A stretch of 64,000 bases of DNA from Patescibacteria group bacterium (GCA_028688055.1 JAQTYZ010000002.1:68256-132255); one strand, 5' to 3'. Counted from the stretch's first letter, positions 10,675-57,362 are shown. Numbers and translations: made by a program. The notes: a model not told the origin generated them from the sequence alone.

Positions 10675-11034
10675 ATGAAAAAAGGATTAATTATTGCTTC
10701 AATGGTTTTTCTATTCGCGCTATCCGTTATGCCGGCCTTAGCTTTGGATGTTGGTTTAAATTACGGCACTTACACTGGTTTAGGAACAAAGGACTTGCGT
10801 GAAGGTATAATGGCAATTGTTAACGTCTTGATGGGCTTTTTGGGTATTATCGCCATCATTATCATTTTGTACGGCGGTTTCACTTGGATGACTGCCGGTG
10901 GTAATGAAGAAAAGGTCAGTCAGGCCAAAAAGATTATCACTGCCGGCATCGTCGGTTTGGTAATCATCTTCATTTCATTTGCTATCGCCAGCTTCGTCAT
11001 TACGCAGTTAATTTCCGCCACTGGCGCTGTTTAA
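10675..11034 (+). CDS. TrbC/VirB2-like pilin-family protein (distant ninth paralog, near-identical to 2473-2832)
   Basis: YGGFTWMTAGGNEEKVSQAKKII. Same AAGGGGGTGAGAAT leader. An extended -10 (TGGTATATT) lies near 10619-10627. Confidence 0.6.
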   Translation: MKKGLIIASMVFLFALSVMPALALDVGLNYGTYTGLGTKDLREGIMAIVNVLMGFLGIIAIIIILYGGFTWMTAGGNEEKVSQAKKIITAGIVGLVIIFISFAIASFVITQLISATGAV

Positions 11035-11076
11035 ACAATAAAATTACTTAAGGCTTTTCCGTTTGGTAAATTATTT

Positions 11077-11748
11077 ATGCCATCAATCAACGACTGGGGG
11101 TCGGTTGCGACCTCTTCCCTAAATGAAATTTGGTTTCGCTTTGTCGATTTGGTCCCTAACCTGATTGGCGCCGCGTTAGTTTTGATTGTTGGTATTTTTT
11201 TGGCGCAGGCCGTTGGTCGCGTCATTGCCAAACTGATTCATAAAATTTATGTCGATCGCGCTGCCGAAACTACTGGTCTAACCACTTTTTTGCAGCGCCT
11301 TGGATTTAAACTTGAAATCAGTAGAGCCTTAGGTCTTCTGGTTACCTGGTTTTTGTATATCATTATTTTAGTCGCCACCGCTGAAATTTTGGGTCTTGAT
11401 CAGATTTCTCAATTTTTGGGTTCGGTGGTCCTCTATATCCCAAACGTCCTGATTGCCGTGGTTATTTTGCTCGTTGGCATTATCGTTTCTAATTTTGTTC
11501 ACACGTTAGTTAAAGAAATGTCGATTGCCGCTAATTTAGATTTTGCCGATTCGTTAGCTAATGTTGCCAAATGGGCGTTGTTAATTTTTACCTTTATGGC
11601 CGCCCTAATTCAGCTTCGGGTGGCCACGGAGTTAATTCAGATTTTATTTACCGGTTTGGTGTTAATGGTTTCCTTGGCCGGTGGTATTGCTTTTGGGCTT
11701 GGTGGTAAAGATCAGGCTAAAGAATTTTTAGATAAATTGATTAAGTAG
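11077..11748 (+). CDS. Membrane protein with TM_helix repeats (mechanosensitive-channel-related N-terminal repeat family)
   Basis: Three repeats of the type LVPNLIGAALVLIVGIFLAQAVGRVIAKLI. Confidence 0.5.
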   Translation: MPSINDWGSVATSSLNEIWFRFVDLVPNLIGAALVLIVGIFLAQAVGRVIAKLIHKIYVDRAAETTGLTTFLQRLGFKLEISRALGLLVTWFLYIIILVATAEILGLDQISQFLGSVVLYIPNVLIAVVILLVGIIVSNFVHTLVKEMSIAANLDFADSLANVAKWALLIFTFMAALIQLRVATELIQILFTGLVLMVSLAGGIAFGLGGKDQAKEFLDKLIK

Positions 11749-36660: not shown

Positions 36661-36753
36661 AATCAGTTAGGAAAAATTGTCAGTCGATTTCTAAAAATTT
36701 GCAGGTAAGTCGGTTGACAACCAAGATAAAATTAGCAATTATAAGTATGAACT

Positions 36754-36999
36754 GCAGGCGTGGTGGAATCTGCCTGTCGGCAGGCAGGTTGGTATATTTA
36801 TCTCGCACAAATGATGGGCAAGTGGTGGAATTGGTATACACGCTAGCCTTAGGAGCTAGTGCCGCAAGGCTTGAGAGTTCGAGTCTCTCCTTGCCCACCA
36901 TTTGTGCGAGACACGCATATCTTACTTGCCCACCTTTGGCGGGGGAGCATGTTTCCGAGTTCGAGTCTCTCCGCCTGCACCATAATCAACTAAATATAA
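36754..36999 (+). pseudogene. Outer pseudo-tRNA(Leu-like) whose 5' part (36754-36826) and 3' part (36912-36999) flank the functional tRNA-Leu(TAG)
   Basis: Acceptor strands GCAGGCG ... CGCCTGCACCA are perfectly complementary. The 3' part carries a duplicated T-arm (GAGTTCGAGTCTCTC). The 5' part has GTGGAAT, then the hairpin CTGCCTGTCGGCAGGCAG, then GGTATAT. The T-stem and anticodon arm are degenerate. Confidence 0.35.
36827..36911 (+). tRNA. tRNA-Leu(TAG)
   Basis: GGGCAAGTGGTGGAATTGGTATACACGCTAGCCTTAGGAGCTAG + TGCCGCAAGGCT variable arm + GAGAGTTCGAGTCTCTC + CTTGCCCACCA. Flanked by the perfect 11-bp inverted repeat TCTCGCACAAA / TTTGTGCGAGA. Confidence 0.8.
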
Positions 37000-52039: not shown

Positions 52040-52066
52040 ACCCCTGTGTTGCAGGGATTTTTATTT
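52040..52066. terminator. Bidirectional intrinsic terminator
   Basis: AAAAACCCCTGTGTTGCAGGGATTTTTATTT. Confidence 0.65.
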
Positions 52067-52080
52067 ATGAAATCTATAGA

Positions 52081-52161
52081 CTATCTCTTTTTTTTCTTAG
52101 CTGCCTTTTTCTTAGGAGCTTTTTTTGCTACTTTCTTTTTTGCTACTTTCTTTTTTGCCAT
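52081..52161 (-). CDS. Very small Lys/Ala-rich basic peptide (26 aa, MAKKKVAKKKVAKKAPKKKAAKKKKR)
   Basis: Reverse-strand ORF with a GGGGGTGAT ribosome-binding site 7 nt upstream. It ends at the terminator. On the opposite strand it overlaps the implausible poly-Phe ORF 52046-52372. Confidence 0.3.
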   Translation of the reverse strand: MAKKKVAKKKVAKKAPKKKAAKKKKR

Positions 52162-52390
52162 TTGGTATCACCCCCTTCCAATTGTATTGTTTACAAAATT
52201 TTTTTTGTTATTTTATAAACTTTTTATTTTCTATAACAATTTATTTAATTATAAAACTTTTTTTGACAAACAACAATATTTATTTTATAAAACTGTGGAT
52301 AACTTTAAAAAATATTTTATGAAGACGACTTTGATTTTTATTTTTTTCAGCAAGGATTTATGCCCTAATTAGACTTGAAGCTATTATCCG

Positions 52391-52744
52391 TTAATCCGAG
52401 TTGGCTAGCTGGTCTTCCAGCACCTTAATTTCTTCCTCTAATTTTTTTATTGTTGTTTCATAATTCTCTACATTACCGCCATAGCCAATGGCCGATCTCT
52501 CATGCTGAGCCATACCCAAATCAGATTTTGCTTTGGACAGTTCATTCCTTTTTTTATCAAGTATTTGTTGAAGATTAAATTGAAGATTTGTCGTAACATC
52601 CACTGTTGGTTTATCAACATTTTGTTCTTGCGTATTGGCTGGATTTTGATTATTGTCCGCCAGGGGACCATTAATGTTTTTATTTTGGTCACTCAATCGT
52701 TCGGCTGTTTTGCCAAAGGCAAAACAGGCCACAACTACGACCAA
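52391..52744 (-). CDS. Coiled-coil protein, probably N-terminally membrane-anchored, hypothetical
   Basis: The first start is TTG. The upstream in-frame hydrophobic codons have no start codon. C-terminal heptad pattern ...KKLEEEIKVLEDQL. Confidence 0.35.
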   Translation of the reverse strand: MVVVVACFAFGKTAERLSDQNKNINGPLADNNQNPANTQEQNVDKPTVDVTTNLQFNLQQILDKKRNELSKAKSDLGMAQHERSAIGYGGNVENYETTIKKLEEEIKVLEDQLANSD

Positions 52745-52874
52745 GATGAAGATGACAATTCCAAAAATAATGTTTAGAGTCTTTTGGTTAATATTGTTTT
52801 AAAATTAATTAATATCTTAGTAATGAATTTAAAATTTTTTTACCATGAATTCTAATCTAGACTAAAGTGTCAAT

Positions 52875-52930
52875 TTTCTTTAACGCCAACTTCGTTTTGA
52901 AGTTACTCAAAATCAGAATGTAAGACTCTA
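52875..52930. repeat. 52-bp direct repeat B, copy 1 (contains the hairpin AACTTCGTTTTGAAGTT)
   Basis: Repeated at 53934-53992 with one mismatch. Confidence 0.6.
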
Positions 52931-52961
52931 AAAGGTTGGTCGAGTAATCTCAGTTTTTTAA

Positions 52962-53306
52962 TTAATGCGGAAACAAAAATTCGCCAACAATCATAAAAAT
53001 CCAAAATAACCCAACTAAAATGGCCGGGACAAATCCGATCCATAATACCCAGGACCGCTCGCCAAGTCTGTACGCACGAATCGCTGTTATCAGTGCGGCG
53101 ACAGAAATAATTAGTGCTAATAATCCGGTGATAAAACCCATCGTCGCTCCGGTAGTCTCATTGCTAATATTATCTATGATCGGACGAATAATCGCAGCAA
53201 AAATACCTAGGGCTGGAAAAATTAAAAGTGTACTCACCCCTAGCCACATCGCCTGCCAGGCAGTTTTGGTTTTTGGTGTTTCATTAAATTTGCTGACTAT
53301 GTTCAT
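52962..53306 (-). CDS. Small membrane protein (four transmembrane segments), hypothetical
   Basis: Hydrophobicity pattern. Confidence 0.4.
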   Translation of the reverse strand: MNIVSKFNETPKTKTAWQAMWLGVSTLLIFPALGIFAAIIRPIIDNISNETTGATMGFITGLLALIISVAALITAIRAYRLGERSWVLWIGFVPAILVGLFWIFMIVGEFLFPH

Positions 53307-53405
53307 ATTTCTGGTGTAAATATAAGTAGTCTATTGTGGCTTTGGTGTACCTCATTCGTCCTAGTTCGAATTAGATAGTTGGGTAATTTTCAAATTACGC
53401 CCACC

Positions 53406-53828
53406 CTAGGCGTCAATAAAGTTTGTTTTCTTAAGAAAATTTTCTATTTGTTTAATGTGCGGCGGGAAAAGCTCTGGCGGTAGTTCATTGAGCTTAAACC
53501 ATTTCCATTCTTCACATCGGTCAGGTTCTTTTAGGGTAAGTTCACCGTCTGTATTTTGAGCAGTAAACCCTATCTGTAGGTAATGCTGATTGCCGCTTCG
53601 ATCATTAACGACATTCGCAAATTCAAAATTATTTGCCTGTAGTCCGGTCTCTTCCATTAGTTCTCGTGCGGCAGCGTCTTCCATCGCCTCGCCCGTCTCA
53701 AGATGACCACCTGGCAAACCCCACGTACCAGCCCCATAAACACCCTTTCTTTTTCCTAAAAGAAGCTGGTTGTTTTTTACAACAAAAACGTTGATACCGA
53801 TATGAAATGTTTGATATGTATCTTCCAT
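53406..53828 (-). CDS. NUDIX hydrolase
   Basis: Nudix box GLPGGHLETGEAMEDAAARELMEETGL. Confidence 0.75.
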   Translation of the reverse strand: MEDTYQTFHIGINVFVVKNNQLLLGKRKGVYGAGTWGLPGGHLETGEAMEDAAARELMEETGLQANNFEFANVVNDRSGNQHYLQIGFTAQNTDGELTLKEPDRCEEWKWFKLNELPPELFPPHIKQIENFLKKTNFIDA

Positions 53829-53860
53829 AGATATAGATATGTGTAAATATAAATAGTTTA

Positions 53861-53900
53861 AAATGGATTGGACCCGAGCGGGTTTGAGCTCTCACTCCCT
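53861..53900 (-). repeat. Degenerate copy of the tRNA-Ala 3' end plus a conserved leader (att-like remnant)
   Basis: GGACCCGAGCGG shared with the tRNA-Ala at 57286-57362. The flanking AAATAGTTTAAAATGGATTGG resembles the leader at 57251-57285. Confidence 0.5.
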
Positions 53901-53933
53901 GGTAGACAGATGCTTTTGGTGGAACAAGTCTCC

Positions 53934-53992
53934 ATTTTTTTTAACGCCAACTTCGTTTTGAAGTTACTCAAAATCAGAATATAAGACTCTAG
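53934..53992. repeat. 52-bp direct repeat B, copy 2
   Basis: See 52875-52930. Confidence 0.6.
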
Positions 53993-54019
53993 CTAATTGT
54001 CTCTAATAAATCGAAACGT

Positions 54020-56173
54020 CTATTGATAAGTTATCTGCACTCTAGCATGGCTACCAGTTCGCTCTAATAGTTTTATCTTAATATCTGTCCCAGGCCAAAC
54101 CAGGTGGGTTTCTCCGTCTACCGGAATTGTATGTCGATAAGAAGAAACGAAAAGATTATTCGGATCGCTACCAAGATTATTATTGTAGCTATAAAACCAT
54201 TGCTCACCAGCTACTTGGTTTGCCACTCTACCAGTCAATTCGCCGGCACTCAAACGTATGCCATTACCAATGTAGTCGTCGCCACCATTAAACCAAGAAG
54301 GAGCCTCAACAACAGTTTTTTTATTTGGGGCTATTAAATAAACAAAATCAGTGAATGTTTTATCAAAATCTAAAATATAGTTGCTCCCATTCCATCTGTT
54401 ATTGTTTGGTGAAGTAACTAAAACTTGCAATATCAATGGTTTATTAATGTCAGAAGTAAAATCGTCATTATCACTATACAAGTCATAAACCCCTGAACTG
54501 GTAACCATAGTAATTTGACCACTCTTTAACCATCCTAAGGAAGCTCTTTCTAGTGGATCATACCAATTACTGCCTAAATACGGACCCATAGACTGATAAA
54601 ATGGCCCCAGAAACCTTCCTCGCAAAATATCAGGCGCGCAATTTACAAAAATATGTTCATATTTTACTTCAGATGATCCAATAGAATCCGGACAATAAGC
54701 ATTCAACTCTGCATATGCATTAGATAATCCAATGCCATGACCCAGTTCATGCATTATTAGTCCAGTCGTGGTTTGCAGATTATGAATAGTGGCTCCCGGA
54801 CCACAATATAAGCATGCCGGTGAAGGTGATACGCCCTGAGCTCCTGTAAGCCATATTGTCGGATTTGATAAAGAATCAAGGGTTGACTTATAGTAACTAA
54901 AAATTGTCCAGTCAAAATATTGGCGGTAATTAGATCCATCCGCCCCAAGAGATTGTAAGATATTTTTCTGGAGATCGGAAGATTCTATCGACGTTGAGTT
55001 TAGAGGATAATACACTTCTTTAATAAGATAGCTCATTTTTAATTGGCCATTGGACATATTAGAAAATAACTGCGCTAATTTGTCCAAAACCAGGGGACTG
55101 AAATCTCCATAAGGATCCGCGGTGGGCTGATATGCCTGGCTATTTCTTATCTTCAAAAACCAACCAGTTTTATTGCCAATCCATGGCCTGATGTGAAACC
55201 GTGATAACAGGACTGGCTTAATTTGAGGAGTAGCCGTTCCCGTAATATGCCAACTCATGCGATATTGCTCCTGGCCACCACTTTTAACGGCCACAAATTC
55301 ATCACCCAAATTTTCATCATATAAATTATTACTTAAAAAAGGCGCATTACTATATTTGCTTATCGTTGGGCAAATAAATCCTGCCGGGAGATTTGAGCAT
55401 TGCACATTTCCCAACACCCACTGTAAATCTTTAGCGCTATCAAATGAAACGTGAGACGTGACCGTAAATGATGGGTCTGTTGCTGAAGTACCGACCAAGG
55501 TGAGATCAGCCTGATGAGGTCCGTATGGATTTGATAATGCTAATATATTAGAAGGCGTTTCAGACATATAAACATCTACAGTCTCATCAAAAGCATTTGA
55601 CAAATTTGAATTTGAGCACGCCCCATCATTACAGCCATTAGGACAGTTATATTTCCAGCTATTAATCATTTTTTTGGCAGTGGCGCCAGTCGGCATCCAA
55701 TATTTAGTAAATGAAGAACTAAAGTTGGCAGAGTCAAGAATAAAACTCTCTTGTAAGCGGCAATTGGTATCCTGCGCGGTACAAGAGGAAACAGCAGTTG
55801 GTTGGCAGGAACCGCCGGTACAGACATCTTTCATGCATTTATCAGCTATAGCTACTTTGCCAGTACCTTTAACGCATTGCGCGGTACTTTTGGTGTAAAC
55901 ATCAAAATATTTAGTTTTACTGATATCGCCGTTATAAGTTTTAAAAGATGCGGGGTTAACAACGGCGTTCGGATCAAGGCTATTGGCCGTCTCAGCTGTT
56001 TCCGAACAAGTCCAATAGTCATTAGCCGCCATTATTCCGACAACACCAGTTGCCATACTGACGCCAAAAGTTGCCAATACTACAAAGCCACAAATTAGGC
56101 TAATACCAAAAAACACTGTTTTGTGAACAGCAATTTTTTTAGTAGTTATTGTTTGCCAAGGAATTCTGGCCAT
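54020..56173 (-). CDS. Large signal-anchored secreted protein with an HExxH zinc-metalloprotease motif
   Basis: N-terminal transmembrane segment. Cys-rich N-terminal region. LIMHELGHGIGL zincin motif. Confidence 0.5.
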   Translation of the reverse strand: MARIPWQTITTKKIAVHKTVFFGISLICGFVVLATFGVSMATGVVGIMAANDYWTCSETAETANSLDPNAVVNPASFKTYNGDISKTKYFDVYTKSTAQCVKGTGKVAIADKCMKDVCTGGSCQPTAVSSCTAQDTNCRLQESFILDSANFSSSFTKYWMPTGATAKKMINSWKYNCPNGCNDGACSNSNLSNAFDETVDVYMSETPSNILALSNPYGPHQADLTLVGTSATDPSFTVTSHVSFDSAKDLQWVLGNVQCSNLPAGFICPTISKYSNAPFLSNNLYDENLGDEFVAVKSGGQEQYRMSWHITGTATPQIKPVLLSRFHIRPWIGNKTGWFLKIRNSQAYQPTADPYGDFSPLVLDKLAQLFSNMSNGQLKMSYLIKEVYYPLNSTSIESSDLQKNILQSLGADGSNYRQYFDWTIFSYYKSTLDSLSNPTIWLTGAQGVSPSPACLYCGPGATIHNLQTTTGLIMHELGHGIGLSNAYAELNAYCPDSIGSSEVKYEHIFVNCAPDILRGRFLGPFYQSMGPYLGSNWYDPLERASLGWLKSGQITMVTSSGVYDLYSDNDDFTSDINKPLILQVLVTSPNNNRWNGSNYILDFDKTFTDFVYLIAPNKKTVVEAPSWFNGGDDYIGNGIRLSAGELTGRVANQVAGEQWFYSYNNNLGSDPNNLFVSSYRHTIPVDGETHLVWPGTDIKIKLLERTGSHARVQITYQ

Positions 56174-56212
56174 AAATTTTCACTGAATAGTTATAGGCTA
56201 AAATTTATTTAA

Positions 56213-56258
56213 TGGACATCGTCCGAGCCAGCTGGAACCAAGTTATTGAGGCTTTGCT
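56213..56258. repeat. 46-bp repeat A (tRNA-Ala-3'-end-derived), copy 1. It overlaps the stop codon of the VOC gene and forms the leader of the metalloprotease gene
   Basis: TGGACATCGTCCGAGCCAGCTGGAACCAAGTTATTGAGGCTTTGC. Compare 56645-56690. Confidence 0.6.
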
Positions 56259-56608
56259 TGTTTTTCAACAAACTGAACCTTGTTTCCGTCTGGGTCTAAA
56301 ATACTAAAATTTTTGCCCCAATCCTGAATAACCAATTCCTTGTGGATTGAAACATTTTTTTGCTTCAAATTTTCGTACAGATTTTCAATCCCACTCTCTA
56401 AAGAAACAAAAACAGTTTGAGCTCCTGGTATTTCCCGTTCTTCATTTTTTAGTTTGATCCCAAGACGAGCATTATTTGGAAAAATAAAAGCGACGTATTT
56501 GTCGCCCTGCTGGTATTCAACGGTAAAATCAAGAATGTCCTTATAAAACGAAACAACCTTCTCAATGTCGTTGCTATAAAATACTGCGCTGTCTAATTTC
56601 ATATTCAT
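56243..56608 (-). CDS. VOC/glyoxalase-family protein
   Basis: About 120 aa with a beta-alpha-beta-beta-beta module pattern. The C-terminal ...KQAKPQ is encoded within repeat A. Confidence 0.5.
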   Translation of the reverse strand: MNMKLDSAVFYSNDIEKVVSFYKDILDFTVEYQQGDKYVAFIFPNNARLGIKLKNEEREIPGAQTVFVSLESGIENLYENLKQKNVSIHKELVIQDWGKNFSILDPDGNKVQFVEKQAKPQ

Positions 56609-56644
56609 ATTAACGTAGATATGCGTAGTTTAAAATAAATTTGG

Positions 56645-56690
56645 TGGACATCGTCCGAGCCAGTTGGGGCCAGATTATTGAGTCTCTGCT
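56645..56690. repeat. 46-bp repeat A, copy 2
   Basis: TGGACATCGTCCGAGCCAGTTGGGGCCAGATTATTGAGTCTCTGC. Confidence 0.6.
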
Positions 56691-57250
56691 AAAATTTTCA
56701 GAACCACATCACGCAACTTTTCAAACTTCACGTAGCCAGCTTTCTTATTGAAATGCCCTGCATTCGGTACAAAGGAAAGCTCAACGCCAAGATTCTTTGC
56801 AAGTTCTTTGCCGTTTTCTAATCCAACATAGGGGTCATCATCAGACTGAAAAACTACAAAGTGTTTAGCTTTTCCCTTAATCTTGTCCCAATCAAAGGTA
56901 AAACCACTAAAACTACTGTCTCTGTCATAGTTTGCAATAGGGCGAACCCCAATCGGAGTTCCTATGAAGAACGCTGCTTTAACTGGATGTTTTAACTTTT
57001 CTAATACACGCAAAGTGAAAATGCCACCCAAACTATGCCCGATTAGGAAGGTATCTTCGTTGATATACTGCTCATAATTTTTAAGAACATCAAACCATTC
57101 GGATATTTTTGCAGGAACTATTAGTGGCGAAGGGAACTGTGGTACACGCACCTCATATCCTCTTTGTTCCAATTCCTGTTTCATCCACGGAAACCAATTT
57201 TCTCCAGGGTAACCTTCTGTGCCGTGAAATATGAAGGCGTTGTTTTTCAT
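56675..57250 (-). CDS. Alpha/beta hydrolase (RBBP9/YdeN-like serine hydrolase)
   Basis: GHSLGG nucleophile elbow. 191 aa. Confidence 0.6.
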   Translation of the reverse strand: MKNNAFIFHGTEGYPGENWFPWMKQELEQRGYEVRVPQFPSPLIVPAKISEWFDVLKNYEQYINEDTFLIGHSLGGIFTLRVLEKLKHPVKAAFFIGTPIGVRPIANYDRDSSFSGFTFDWDKIKGKAKHFVVFQSDDDPYVGLENGKELAKNLGVELSFVPNAGHFNKKAGYVKFEKLRDVVLKILAETQ

Positions 57251-57285
57251 AGATATTTGTAGATACGAATAGTCTAAAGTGGATT

Positions 57286-57362
57286 TGGTGGACCCGAGCG
57301 GATTCGAACCGCTGACCTCCTGCTTGCAAAGCAGGCATTCTAACCAGCTGAACTACGGGCCC
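57286..57362 (-). tRNA. tRNA-Ala(TGC)
   Basis: Reverse complement GGGCCCGTAGTTCAGCTGGTTAGAATGCCTGCTTTGCAAGCAGG...GGTTCGAATCCGCTCGGGTCCACCA. G3:U70 Ala identity pair. Confidence 0.85.

Follow-up and report, generated by a model that had tools for sequence, protein, structure and literature searches.

The 64,000-nt stretch of Patescibacteria group bacterium DNA analysed here (GCA_028688055.1, JAQTYZ010000002.1:68256-132255; hereafter the window) carries an array of five short gene units directly behind a tRNA-Ala(UGC) gene. The host belongs to the Patescibacteria, or candidate phyla radiation (CPR), and lies near Candidatus Buchananbacteria; its ribosomal protein L19 is 75% identical to that of Buchananbacteria genomes. 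On the minus strand the gene for L19 is followed by tRNA-Leu(GAG), tRNA-Val(UAC), a gene encoding an 85-aa membrane protein, tRNA-Ala(UGC) and five open reading frames (ORFs), which encode an alpha/beta serine hydrolase, a VOC/glyoxalase-family protein, a large protein with an HExxH motif, a NUDIX hydrolase and a small membrane protein (Table 1). The five units behind tRNA-Ala measure 0.43-2.3 kb, include one ORF each and are all oriented as the tRNA. The tRNA gene, with G3:U70 and an encoded CCA, is intact, and the array starts 0 nt past its CCA, on the 3' side, as integrative elements do at tRNA genes that they leave whole. Its 3' end, ...GGTTCGAATCCGCTCGGGTCCACCA, is the sequence that is copied in the units. 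No terminator-like site was found in any junction between the five ORFs. An earlier note, made from the sequence of the window, had described this tRNA-Ala gene with gene units downstream of it, and ARAGORN, Rfam and the ORFs bear this out; it had counted four units, and while all of its genes are present, there are five, as the membrane-protein gene has a leader of its own (53304-53350).

Table 1 The tRNA-Ala array of the window, in the order of the minus strand, and the length of the corresponding interval in relatives
Feature	Position	Strand	Details
Ribosomal protein L19	58277-57894	minus	
tRNA-Ala(UGC), platform	57286-57362	minus	ARAGORN; Rfam tRNA 71 bits
Unit 1 junction: true tRNA 3' end GTCCACCA, 35-nt leader AAATCCACTTTAGACTATTCGTATCTACAAATATCT, hydrolase ATG	57248-57293	minus	leader HMM E 4e-10; weight matrix 36.8 bits
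Cassette 1 cargo: alpha/beta serine hydrolase PF06821, 191 aa	56675-57250	minus	Pfam E 6e-22
Hydrolase right-end element (D2 copy) CAATAATCTGGCCCCAACTGGCTCGGACGATGTCCACCA	56640-56681	minus	HMM E 1.4e-9; contains hydrolase stop codon
Unit 2 leader, before VOC gene	56607-56649	minus	HMM E 3e-8
Cassette 2 cargo: VOC/glyoxalase-family protein, 121 aa	56243-56608	minus	Pfam E 4e-13
VOC right-end element (second D2 copy), end GTCCATTA	56208-56249	minus	HMM E 1.8e-10; contains VOC stop codon
Unit 3 leader, before HExxH gene	56171-56217	minus	matrix 25.4 bits; HMM E 1e-3
Cassette 3 cargo: HExxH protein, HELGH motif, 717 aa	54020-56173	minus	ORF
D1 copy A, 66 nt, hairpin AACTTC/GAAGTT	53926-53991	minus	29 nt past HExxH stop codon
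Unit 4 junction: tRNA-Ala 3' remnant CTCAAACCCGCTCGGGTCCA, then NUDIX leader	53833-53887	minus	matrix 38 bits
Cassette 4 cargo: NUDIX hydrolase, 140 aa	53406-53828	minus	Pfam E 3e-26
Unit 5 junction: NUDIX right-end element ..TTCGAACTAGGACGAATGAGGTACACCA, then membrane-protein leader	53304-53381	minus	right end HMM E 3.6e-6; leader HMM E 6e-6, matrix 33.8 bits
Cassette 5 cargo: membrane protein, 114 aa	52962-53306	minus	ORF
D1 copy B	52865-52930	minus	32 nt past membrane-protein stop; distal end of repeat-bounded array
tRNA-Ala to PHP-like gene, window			5.3 kb; five cassettes
tRNA-Ala to PHP-like gene, L053			0.54 kb
tRNA-Ala to PHP-like gene, L007			0.6 kb
tRNA-Ala to PHP-like gene, L094			0.62 kb
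tRNA-Ala to PHP-like gene, L005			0.74 kb
tRNA-Ala to PHP-like gene, L004			0.88 kb
tRNA-Ala to PHP-like gene, L019			1.4 kb; patatin gene inside
tRNA-Ala to PHP-like gene, L119			1.9 kb
tRNA-Ala to PHP-like gene, L006			2.0 kb
tRNA-Ala to PHP-like gene, L049			2.2 kb
tRNA-Ala to PHP-like gene, L040			2.4 kb
tRNA-Ala to PHP-like gene, L042			2.5 kb
tRNA-Ala to PHP-like gene, L052			2.9 kb

Each of the five ORFs is preceded by a homologous leader of about 40 nt that stands directly after a tRNA 3'-end copy of the type ...GTCCACCA. The leaders carry the motif TATCTAC 6-13 nt upstream of the start codon; it is degenerate in the HExxH unit, whose leader is the most diverged of the five. A 29-nt weight matrix of the leader finds only these five sites in the 64 kb, at 25-38 bits, and everything else scores 12 bits or less. 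Profile hidden Markov models (HMMs) of the leader and of the element at the right end of the units match only at cassette junctions, both in the window and in 1.55 Mb of related DNA (144 fetched CPR loci, cited here by L numbers), with E values of 4e-10 to 1.5e-3. As the matrix and the models were built from these same sequences, they speak for specificity only; the HMM search of the fetched loci gave no cassette junctions beyond the known ones.

The repeats at the junctions extend into the genes. The two D2 copies, at the right ends of the hydrolase and VOC units, are 80% identical over 65 nt and reach into the stop codons. The sequence GGCTCGGACGATGTCCA occurs exactly twice, at 56645-61 and 56213-29 (0.06 occurrences expected at three or fewer mismatches), and CCGCTCGGGTCCA is found exactly at tRNA-Ala and at 53869-81, within the unit 4 remnant, which matches the tRNA over 19 nt at 89%, with 13 nt exact, and misses the CCA. 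In the elements at units 2, 3 and 5 the likeness to the tRNA begins at the T-loop (GGTTC), reaches as far as the CCA end and is interrupted by a 5-nt insertion. When each unit was aligned locally with the last 30 nt of the tRNA and the score judged against shuffled sequences, the likeness was significant for unit 4 (p~2e-4) and unit 2 (p~4e-3). The direct repeats at the borders of the units are copies of the tRNA's 3' part, nearly exact at unit 4 and diverged at units 2, 3 and 5. All the tRNA-Ala 3'-end copies and homologous leaders listed in the earlier note exist, at or a few bases from where it had placed them; the start of its fourth copy, put at 53861, is about 6 nt off, and the tRNA likeness that it had seen in the last 15 nt is real, yet at units 2, 3 and 5 it is not confined to these and spans the T-loop to the CCA. 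Its observation that two proteins end within the repeat also holds, as the hydrolase and the VOC protein both end in ..Q* from CTCAATAA. In two relatives, L040 and L049, the hydrolase stop codon comes just ahead of a conserved CAATAA; unlike these, the window frame runs on to that TAA, and for this reason the hydrolase of the window ends inside the repeat.

From two scans that used L19 and a convergent PHP-like gene, respectively, as anchors, 119 related loci were obtained. In the relatives that retain it, the order L19, tRNA-Leu, tRNA-Val, 85-aa membrane protein, tRNA-Ala, variable interval, lysine-rich gene and convergent PHP-like gene is syntenic. Between tRNA-Ala and the PHP-like gene lie 0.54-2.9 kb in 12 relatives, as opposed to 5.3 kb in the window, and both the length and the gene content of the interval vary. 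In the simplest state, found in L005, L006, L008, L009 and L025, a hairpin-plus-T terminator directly follows the CCA. The locus thus shows the presence and absence of inserted genes between conserved flanks that is expected of integrative elements. The earlier note had stated that its idea would be refuted by relatives in which gene content and order were unchanged and the repeats were missing; the opposite was found. Near the distal end of the interval in the window, a 117-aa ORF with a TTG start (52391-52744, minus strand) has neither a leader nor a tRNA-like repeat and no homolog among the fetched loci. Beyond it, a low-GC stretch (30%; 52046-52372) houses a lysine-rich ORF of 26 aa, MAKKKVAKKKVAKKAPKKKAAKKKKR (52161-52081, minus strand), with a 15-nt tandem repeat inside; relatives have longer versions of this ORF, with a strong Shine-Dalgarno sequence, conserved beside the PHP-like gene.

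Three of the five cassettes recur in other genomes together with their ends. The hydrolase cassette (658 nt) is 86% identical in DNA, end to end, to that of L040, where it lies 1.2 kb from tRNA-Ala, is preceded by GGGGAATCCGCTCGGGTCCACCA and a leader of the window type that lacks 10 nt, and is followed by the right-end element CAATAACTTGGTTCCAACTAACCCGAACGTGGTGAACCACA. The remnant before this hydrolase is of the window's tRNA-Ala end type, unlike L040's own GAATCTCCTCGAGTCCACCA, and the tRNA-Ala 3' remnants of L040, AATCCGCTCGGGTCCA, differ from its own tRNA-Ala, AATCTCCTCGAGTCCA. In L049 the hydrolase stands directly behind tRNA-Ala, with the same leader and the same right end, and in L122 an aminotransferase gene and the hydrolase gene lie between tRNA-Ala and the remnant GAGTCCACCA, after which comes a terminator. 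A terminator displaced in this way, behind a remnant, was seen in L122 and L138; the remnant copies themselves are exact over 19 nt in L140 and extend over 31 nt in L122.

In L138 the NUDIX gene (82% protein identity) has the 3' half of a tRNA-Ala on one side and a right-end element with a terminator behind it on the other, and its leader, AAATCCACGATAAAATATTTGTATCTACTGTAATCT, is homologous to that of the window. In L140-142 a NUDIX gene (72% identical) is found behind tRNA-Ile and tRNA-Ala, 11 nt past a 19-nt exact copy of the tRNA-Ala 3' end. The DNA identity of the NUDIX cassette is 80%. The VOC cassette occurs behind other tRNAs: in L219 (84% identical protein) a series of remnants separates it from tRNA-Ala(CGC) upstream, and its leader differs from that of the window at 2 of 43 nt; in L220 it follows tRNA-Val(CAC), between GGACATCATCCGCCA plus leader and a right-end element. 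Its DNA identity to the window is 87% in L219 and 85% in L220. While the cassettes are thus 80-87% identical in DNA, the core proteins of comparable relatives (L19, the 85-aa protein, the PHP-like protein) are 57-75% identical as proteins. Judged from these sequences, the hydrolase, VOC and NUDIX units are horizontally exchanged, since the same cassettes with the same ends recur elsewhere at a higher identity than the core proteins.

These findings bear on a reading in which nothing at the array is mobile. The junctions might be kept as RNA or expression signals (promoter, leader, processing site, a GGAC..GTCC-ACCA helix), and the array might have grown by local duplication. The co-orientation of the units, the lack of terminator-like sites in the junctions and the place of TATCTAC shortly before the start codons (degenerate in the HExxH unit) would suit this explanation, as would leaders that have no Shine-Dalgarno sequence where a neighbouring gene in relatives has a strong one. 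Pure local duplication is contradicted by the relatives, which differ in gene order and hold the same ends and genes in unrelated neighbourhoods. No sigma-70-like promoter is called in the leaders, the junctions fold no better than shuffled sequence, and, as the 1.55 Mb of related DNA has the elements at cassette junctions only, they are not expression signals of a general kind. We consider this explanation very improbable, although the leader could have a role in expression alongside mobility.

Further candidate identities of the elements were tried and set aside. A generic promoter was rejected on the sigma-70 scan and on the leader matrix and HMMs, which match nothing else in the 64 kb and 1.55 Mb. 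A structured RNA or attC site was rejected on the folds, which equal those of shuffles, and on Rfam, which in the window finds nothing but tRNAs (E up to 1); in L004 it gives weak tRNA- or tmRNA-like fragments only. A dispersed repeat of the miniature inverted-repeat transposable element (MITE) or repetitive extragenic palindrome (REP) type was rejected because the 64 kb hold copies at this one locus only and terminal inverted repeats are missing from the units.

The extent of a cassette emerges from a comparison of three VOC and three hydrolase contexts. Left of the CCA the contexts are unrelated except for a tRNA-tail-like TCC(A/G)CCA, right of it the sequence is gene-specific and conserved, and the element CAATAACTTGGTTCCAACT...GTCCACCA accompanies the upstream gene. 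According to this comparison a cassette comprises leader, ORF and pseudo-tRNA end, with the joint at or next to the CCA. We consider, with moderate confidence, that small mobile gene cassettes have inserted one after another at the 3' end of tRNA-Ala(UGC) and that this end is a hotspot for such insertions. Each cassette would consist of an A/T-rich leader of ~35-45 nt ending in ..TATCTAC..ATG, one ORF and a right-end element of ~40 nt that would be a diverged tRNA copy from T-loop to CCA (..CTTGGTTCCAACT..GTCCACCA). Insertion would take place at or just past the ...GTCCACCA of the tRNA or of the pseudo-end of a resident cassette, with the consequence that every cassette would be flanked on both sides by tRNA-tail-like sequence and all would be oriented as the tRNA. 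We infer that site-specific recombination, between a pseudo-tRNA end and a real one or another pseudo-end, moves the cassettes in the form of small circles, with a crossover point presumably at the CCA and an enzyme that would be supplied from elsewhere in the genome or by a helper element. Transcripts that read through from the tRNA operon would account for at least part of their expression, because the junctions have no terminator-like site and the leaders are not sigma-70 consensus promoters. The earlier note had offered two variants, integration at a tRNA 3' end and a cassette array built on a tRNA-derived site. The variable interval and the cassettes that recur with their ends support this interpretation, and of the two the wording as a cassette array fits slightly better, because the boundaries coincide with the CCA and the tRNA-like element travels with the upstream gene.

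A census of tRNA ends in the fetched loci (16 nt of the 3' end, two or fewer mismatches) backs such recombination as a general process in these bacteria. A second copy of the tRNA's own 3' end was found within 3 kb downstream in 12 of 176 non-redundant tRNA contexts and in none upstream. The tRNAs concerned are those for Ala, Val, Leu, Lys, Ile, Arg and Asp, the copies lie 36-392 nt downstream, and most of the inserts are gene-less.

The distal part of the array is bracketed by a second repeat, D1, whose two copies (66 nt, 94% identity, 1061-nt spacing, 39-nt exact core) enclose the unit 4 remnant, the NUDIX gene, the unit 5 junction and the membrane-protein gene. The 52-bp repeat that the earlier note had reported around the NUDIX unit is present and does bracket it, though at a length of 66 nt. 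The independently assembled Logan contig L002 (SRR22315507, 1080 nt) is 100% identical to the D1 segment and has both its ends within the D1 cores; as the segment is repeat-bounded, such ends are expected, and an insert, a tandem copy and a circle fit them equally. The NUDIX and membrane-protein segment is probably the youngest event, to go by D1 being much better conserved than the other repeats, and the D1-bounded pair may have arisen via recombination at a second site, or by duplication. The idea that the two genes form a conserved module was rejected, the 114-aa membrane protein being unrelated to the DUF7670 protein that follows NUDIX in L140.

Several findings weigh against mobile cassettes at a hotspot. 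No recombinase domain was detected in the five cargo proteins or in 13 other ORFs of the window with Pfam, nor in the remainder by eye; the earlier note had likewise seen no integrase in the window. No recombinase is consistently found beside related arrays, and L040, L049, L122, L138, L219 and L220 have none. Neither a circular or excised form nor a species-level empty site was found among the assembled loci compared. The junctions are not attC-like, since they fold no better than shuffled sequence (z -0.18 and +0.18); the upstream part of the unit 5 junction, folded as RNA, gave z -2.5. The tRNA likeness of unit 5 (p~0.05) and unit 3 (p~0.1) is not significant alone, so that the statistical support that the earlier note had regarded as decisive holds for units 4 and 2, and the tRNA origin of units 3 and 5 is supported by their homology to unit 2 and by the data on other genomes. 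For the HExxH and 114-aa units no homologs with such ends were found in the fetched loci, and their status as cassettes therefore depends on the window. In L123-L135 the hydrolase gene has neither these ends nor a tRNA nearby, which implies that cargo and ends are separable and that part of its wide distribution has other causes. Finally, the window comes from a metagenome-assembled genome, in which the NUDIX segment could be misplaced owing to the 39-nt exact core of D1.

Two candidates for the cassette enzyme, a XerD-like gene in L140 and a serine recombinase in L123, were rejected as they are not consistently linked to arrays. The large serine recombinase of L123 lies 2.3 kb from a NUDIX-hydrolase cluster that has no tRNA and no cassette ends. 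The related loci (1.55 Mb) gave no autonomous partner that uses a tRNA-Ala site. Nor did viral contigs, scanned three times for a phage or plasmid attP, in which the tRNA end plus leader gave chance matches only, with no tRNA context, a two-hairpin element found in tRNA remnants of relatives (described below) gave none, and the right-end element gave four candidate matches.

The main rival explanation keeps the hotspot and the exchange of cassettes and dispenses with a dedicated recombinase. DNA that has been taken up from relatives would enter by RecA-dependent or homology-facilitated illegitimate recombination, with the conserved tRNA 3' end and the tRNA-like right ends providing short homology, for example in a single crossover of a circularised fragment. 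This would agree with the lack of a recombinase, with identity blocks that are short but real (13-31 nt), with cassettes behind Ala-UGC, Ala-CGC and Val-CAC, which a single site-specific enzyme would not obviously permit, and with the D1 pair, which is not tRNA-like yet brackets an insert. We nevertheless hold homology-driven insertion to be rather unlikely, as the boundaries recur at the same positions, namely the CCA end and, for many remnants, the T-loop, the right-end element is kept as a unit across genomes though it is too diverged from the resident tRNA to offer good homology, and the downstream-only polarity of the tRNA-end copies (12 versus 0) is what recombination at att sites predicts.

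It is also conceivable, although quite improbable in our view, that the tRNA-like pieces are mainly debris of repeated tRNA gene replacement and that the accessory genes are ordinary neighbours that have inherited such pieces and do not move. New tRNA copies, some with a GIY-YIG nuclease gene, would enter an old gene and leave 3' pieces of it downstream. Such events do seem to occur: tRNAs split at position 35/36 were found in L019 and L138 (Ala) and in L126 (Gly), two of them with a GIY-YIG ORF, a tRNA-Leu(UAG) of the window is nested between the pieces of an older tRNA-Leu, and ORF-less 3' remnants with hairpin insertions accumulate behind tRNAs. Replacement leaves unexplained why three genes have the same leader and right-end element in several genomes and behind different tRNAs, and why the elements of units 2, 3 and 5 stand between genes at 0.6-4 kb from the tRNA. 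Both processes can coexist, as they do in L138.

The split and nested tRNA genes have features of their own. In the window, at 36745-36985 of the plus strand, the intact tRNA-Leu(UAG) (36816-36900) is flanked by an 11-bp inverted repeat, TCTCGCACAAA / TTTGTGCGAGA, and lies between 5' and 3' pieces of a tRNA-Leu whose acceptor strands, GCAGGCG/CGCCTGC, are complementary and whose D-loop has a 19-nt GC-rich hairpin insertion; a peroxiredoxin gene begins 22 nt past the 3' end of this older tRNA. In L019 (11106-11585), L138 (541-740) and L126 (5463-5950) the resident tRNA is split exactly at 35/36 by an insert that holds a complete replacement tRNA of the same identity. The inserts of L019 and L126 also hold an ORF of 84-92 aa of the GIY-YIG type (Pfam E 5.5e-20 in L019; precomputed PF01541 in L126), those of L019 and L138 end in the inverted hexamers TCCCGA/TCGGGA, and the old tRNA halves of L138 retain matching anticodon stems, CTCA/TGAG. 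Group I introns at 35/36 have been reported in tRNA-Asn and tRNA-Asp of Patescibacteria (PMC13011429). A group I intron was rejected here, as the inserts, of ~140-390 nt, are mostly a complete tRNA gene and end in A, not G; by their length they look too short for a ribozyme core.

Other tRNA genes of the relatives are decorated. At 3598-4090 of L030, tRNA-Lys(CUU) is followed by a GIY-YIG-like ORF (assigned by eye) and a 5'-truncated copy of tRNA-Lys into which three GC-rich hairpins are inserted, one in the D-loop, one past the D-arm and one in the anticodon loop. A conserved two-hairpin element, GGTTC-TGCGCCAGAGGCGCA-CCCGCCTCTGGCGGGG-AATCC..., is located in the T-loop of tRNA-Ala and tRNA-Leu 3' remnants in different genomes (L040 10676-10730 and 11630-11724; L052 14113-14054, minus strand; L122 4516-4700); its second hairpin is approximately the reverse complement of the first, as in REP doublets. 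An ORF-less element of ~150 nt, ..GGAGTTTCCCGACGCACAGATTATTT..GGGGCGAG|TCTCCTCGGGTCCACCA, is conserved between L219 (7700-7990) and L040 (11726-11886), where it interrupts a tRNA-Ala T-loop remnant. In five loci (L007 ~11012-11087, L019 ~11446-11522, L094 4266-4341, L122 4406-4481 and L138 612-688) a perfectly complementary leader and trailer of 11-14 bp extend the acceptor stem of the tRNA. Their sequences vary between genomes while the pairing is maintained, a pattern that suggests selection on a helix of the pre-tRNA (or on element ends).

The hydrolase has 1638 homologs at E≤1e-30 and is unusually well conserved among the matches listed (P0001-P0120): all 120 are 73-100% identical and come from several CPR lineages, with 73-91% in Buchananbacteria, Daviesbacteria and Levybacteria. 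The identical protein (P0001) is on record from an NCBI metagenome-assembled genome. On Daviesbacteria-type contigs the hydrolase gene leads another block, made up of the hydrolase, a helix-turn-helix protein, two unknown proteins and GrpB. Homologs of the VOC protein are 84-88% identical, and the NUDIX protein has 141 homologs at E≤1e-20, with 50-100% identity among the 120 listed. The HExxH protein, which matched no Pfam family, has an N-terminal membrane anchor, a Cys-rich module and the HELGH motif, and the motif suggests a metalloprotease. It belongs to a rare family, with 57 clusters among 1.8 billion representatives and a top relative at 46% identity, and is bimodular, as the N-terminal Cys-rich part (~190 aa) and the C-terminal HELGH part (~520 aa) are each found separately elsewhere. 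The 114-aa membrane protein has no recognised family, its Pfam matches all being sub-threshold. The cargo so far suggests roles in detoxification, nucleotide housekeeping and surface functions.

Among known systems, the islands that form by serial integration at tRNA genes, such as the tycheposons of Prochlorococcus and the tandem accretion of integrative and conjugative (ICE), integrative and mobilizable (IME) and cis-mobilizable (CIME) elements in streptococci, resemble the array in their insertion at a tRNA and in the partial tRNA copies that separate the units. As here, remnants accumulate and the content varies between conserved flanks, in a streamlined genome. The known islands are several kb long and bring a tyrosine or large serine recombinase of their own and, in many cases, replication genes, whereas the units described here measure 0.43-2.3 kb, have one ORF and short conserved ends whatever the cargo, and encode no integrase that could be found. 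As att-flanked units with no recombination genes they fit the first part of the definition of a CIME; for the second part, an autonomous element with the same att site beside or ancestral to the units, no candidate was found in the related loci and viral contigs scanned. In two genomes the hydrolase adjoins the tRNA and in a third it is displaced, so that closeness to the tRNA does not simply reflect how recently a cassette arrived.

In the scheme of K. P. Williams (2002), tyrosine integrases reportedly cross over at one of three places in a tRNA gene, namely the anticodon loop, the T-loop or the 3' end. The remnants in relatives agree with this, running from the T-loop (~57/58) or from position 36 of the anticodon loop to the 3' end; they differ in that no integrase accompanies them and many bound gene-less inserts of 36-400 nt, and the cassette boundaries of the window are at the CCA end. 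The small GIY-YIG ORFs directly beside tRNA genes in L019, L126 and L030 recall SegB of phage T4, a free-standing GIY-YIG homing endonuclease encoded in the tRNA gene cluster of that phage (PMC2330249). This likeness relates to the split and replaced tRNA genes, not to the cassettes, and the array of the window has no GIY-YIG gene.

Integrons consist of co-oriented single-ORF cassettes, each with a 3' recombination site, on a fixed platform with a possible upstream promoter; cassettes are shared between arrays and the recombinase is encoded outside the cassette. Together with the clusters of attC sites lacking integron-integrases (CALINs), they share with the array the co-oriented single-ORF cassettes, the site-like element at the 3' end, the platform, the recurrence of cassettes in other arrays and a recombinase that is not in the cassette. 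One difference lies in the sites: an attC site is an imperfect inverted repeat that folds as a hairpin, with conserved R and L boxes, whereas the right-end elements show no imperfect palindrome, form no such fold and match no Rfam family. Another is that the platform is a tRNA gene, not attI, with a cassette site that imitates the T-loop-to-CCA segment of the tRNA. No intI or other tyrosine recombinase was found in the ORFs tested, all from the window, which covers 64 kb of the 201-kb contig. Of the known kinds, the tRNA-anchored island formed by serial integration comes nearest to the array, and the logic of the cassettes is that of the integron; both comparisons fail on defining features. 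We found no description of such cassettes in Patescibacteria in the literature, and the array is best seen as a variation on known systems: very small, recombinase-less cassettes in CPR bacteria whose own site imitates a tRNA tail. A bolder proposal, which we hold as tentative and somewhat doubtful, is that Patescibacteria may have their own integron-like system on tRNA genes, with the CCA as platform, single-gene cassettes that have a weak promoter or none, pseudo-tRNA recombination sites, a shared leader for expression from the tRNA operon and a recombinase encoded elsewhere, possibly a housekeeping enzyme of the Xer type, that shuffles cassettes within and between genomes.

The CPR bacteria have tiny genomes and no well-described route by which accessory genes are acquired, and the locus and its relatives show a compact and recurrent one. 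If the mechanism were confirmed, one of the largest radiations of uncultured bacteria would have its own minimal equivalent of integrons and tycheposon islands. The profiles of the leader and the right end would then serve as a signature for cataloguing mobile accessory genes, and the search for the recombinase would become a concrete problem of co-occurrence.

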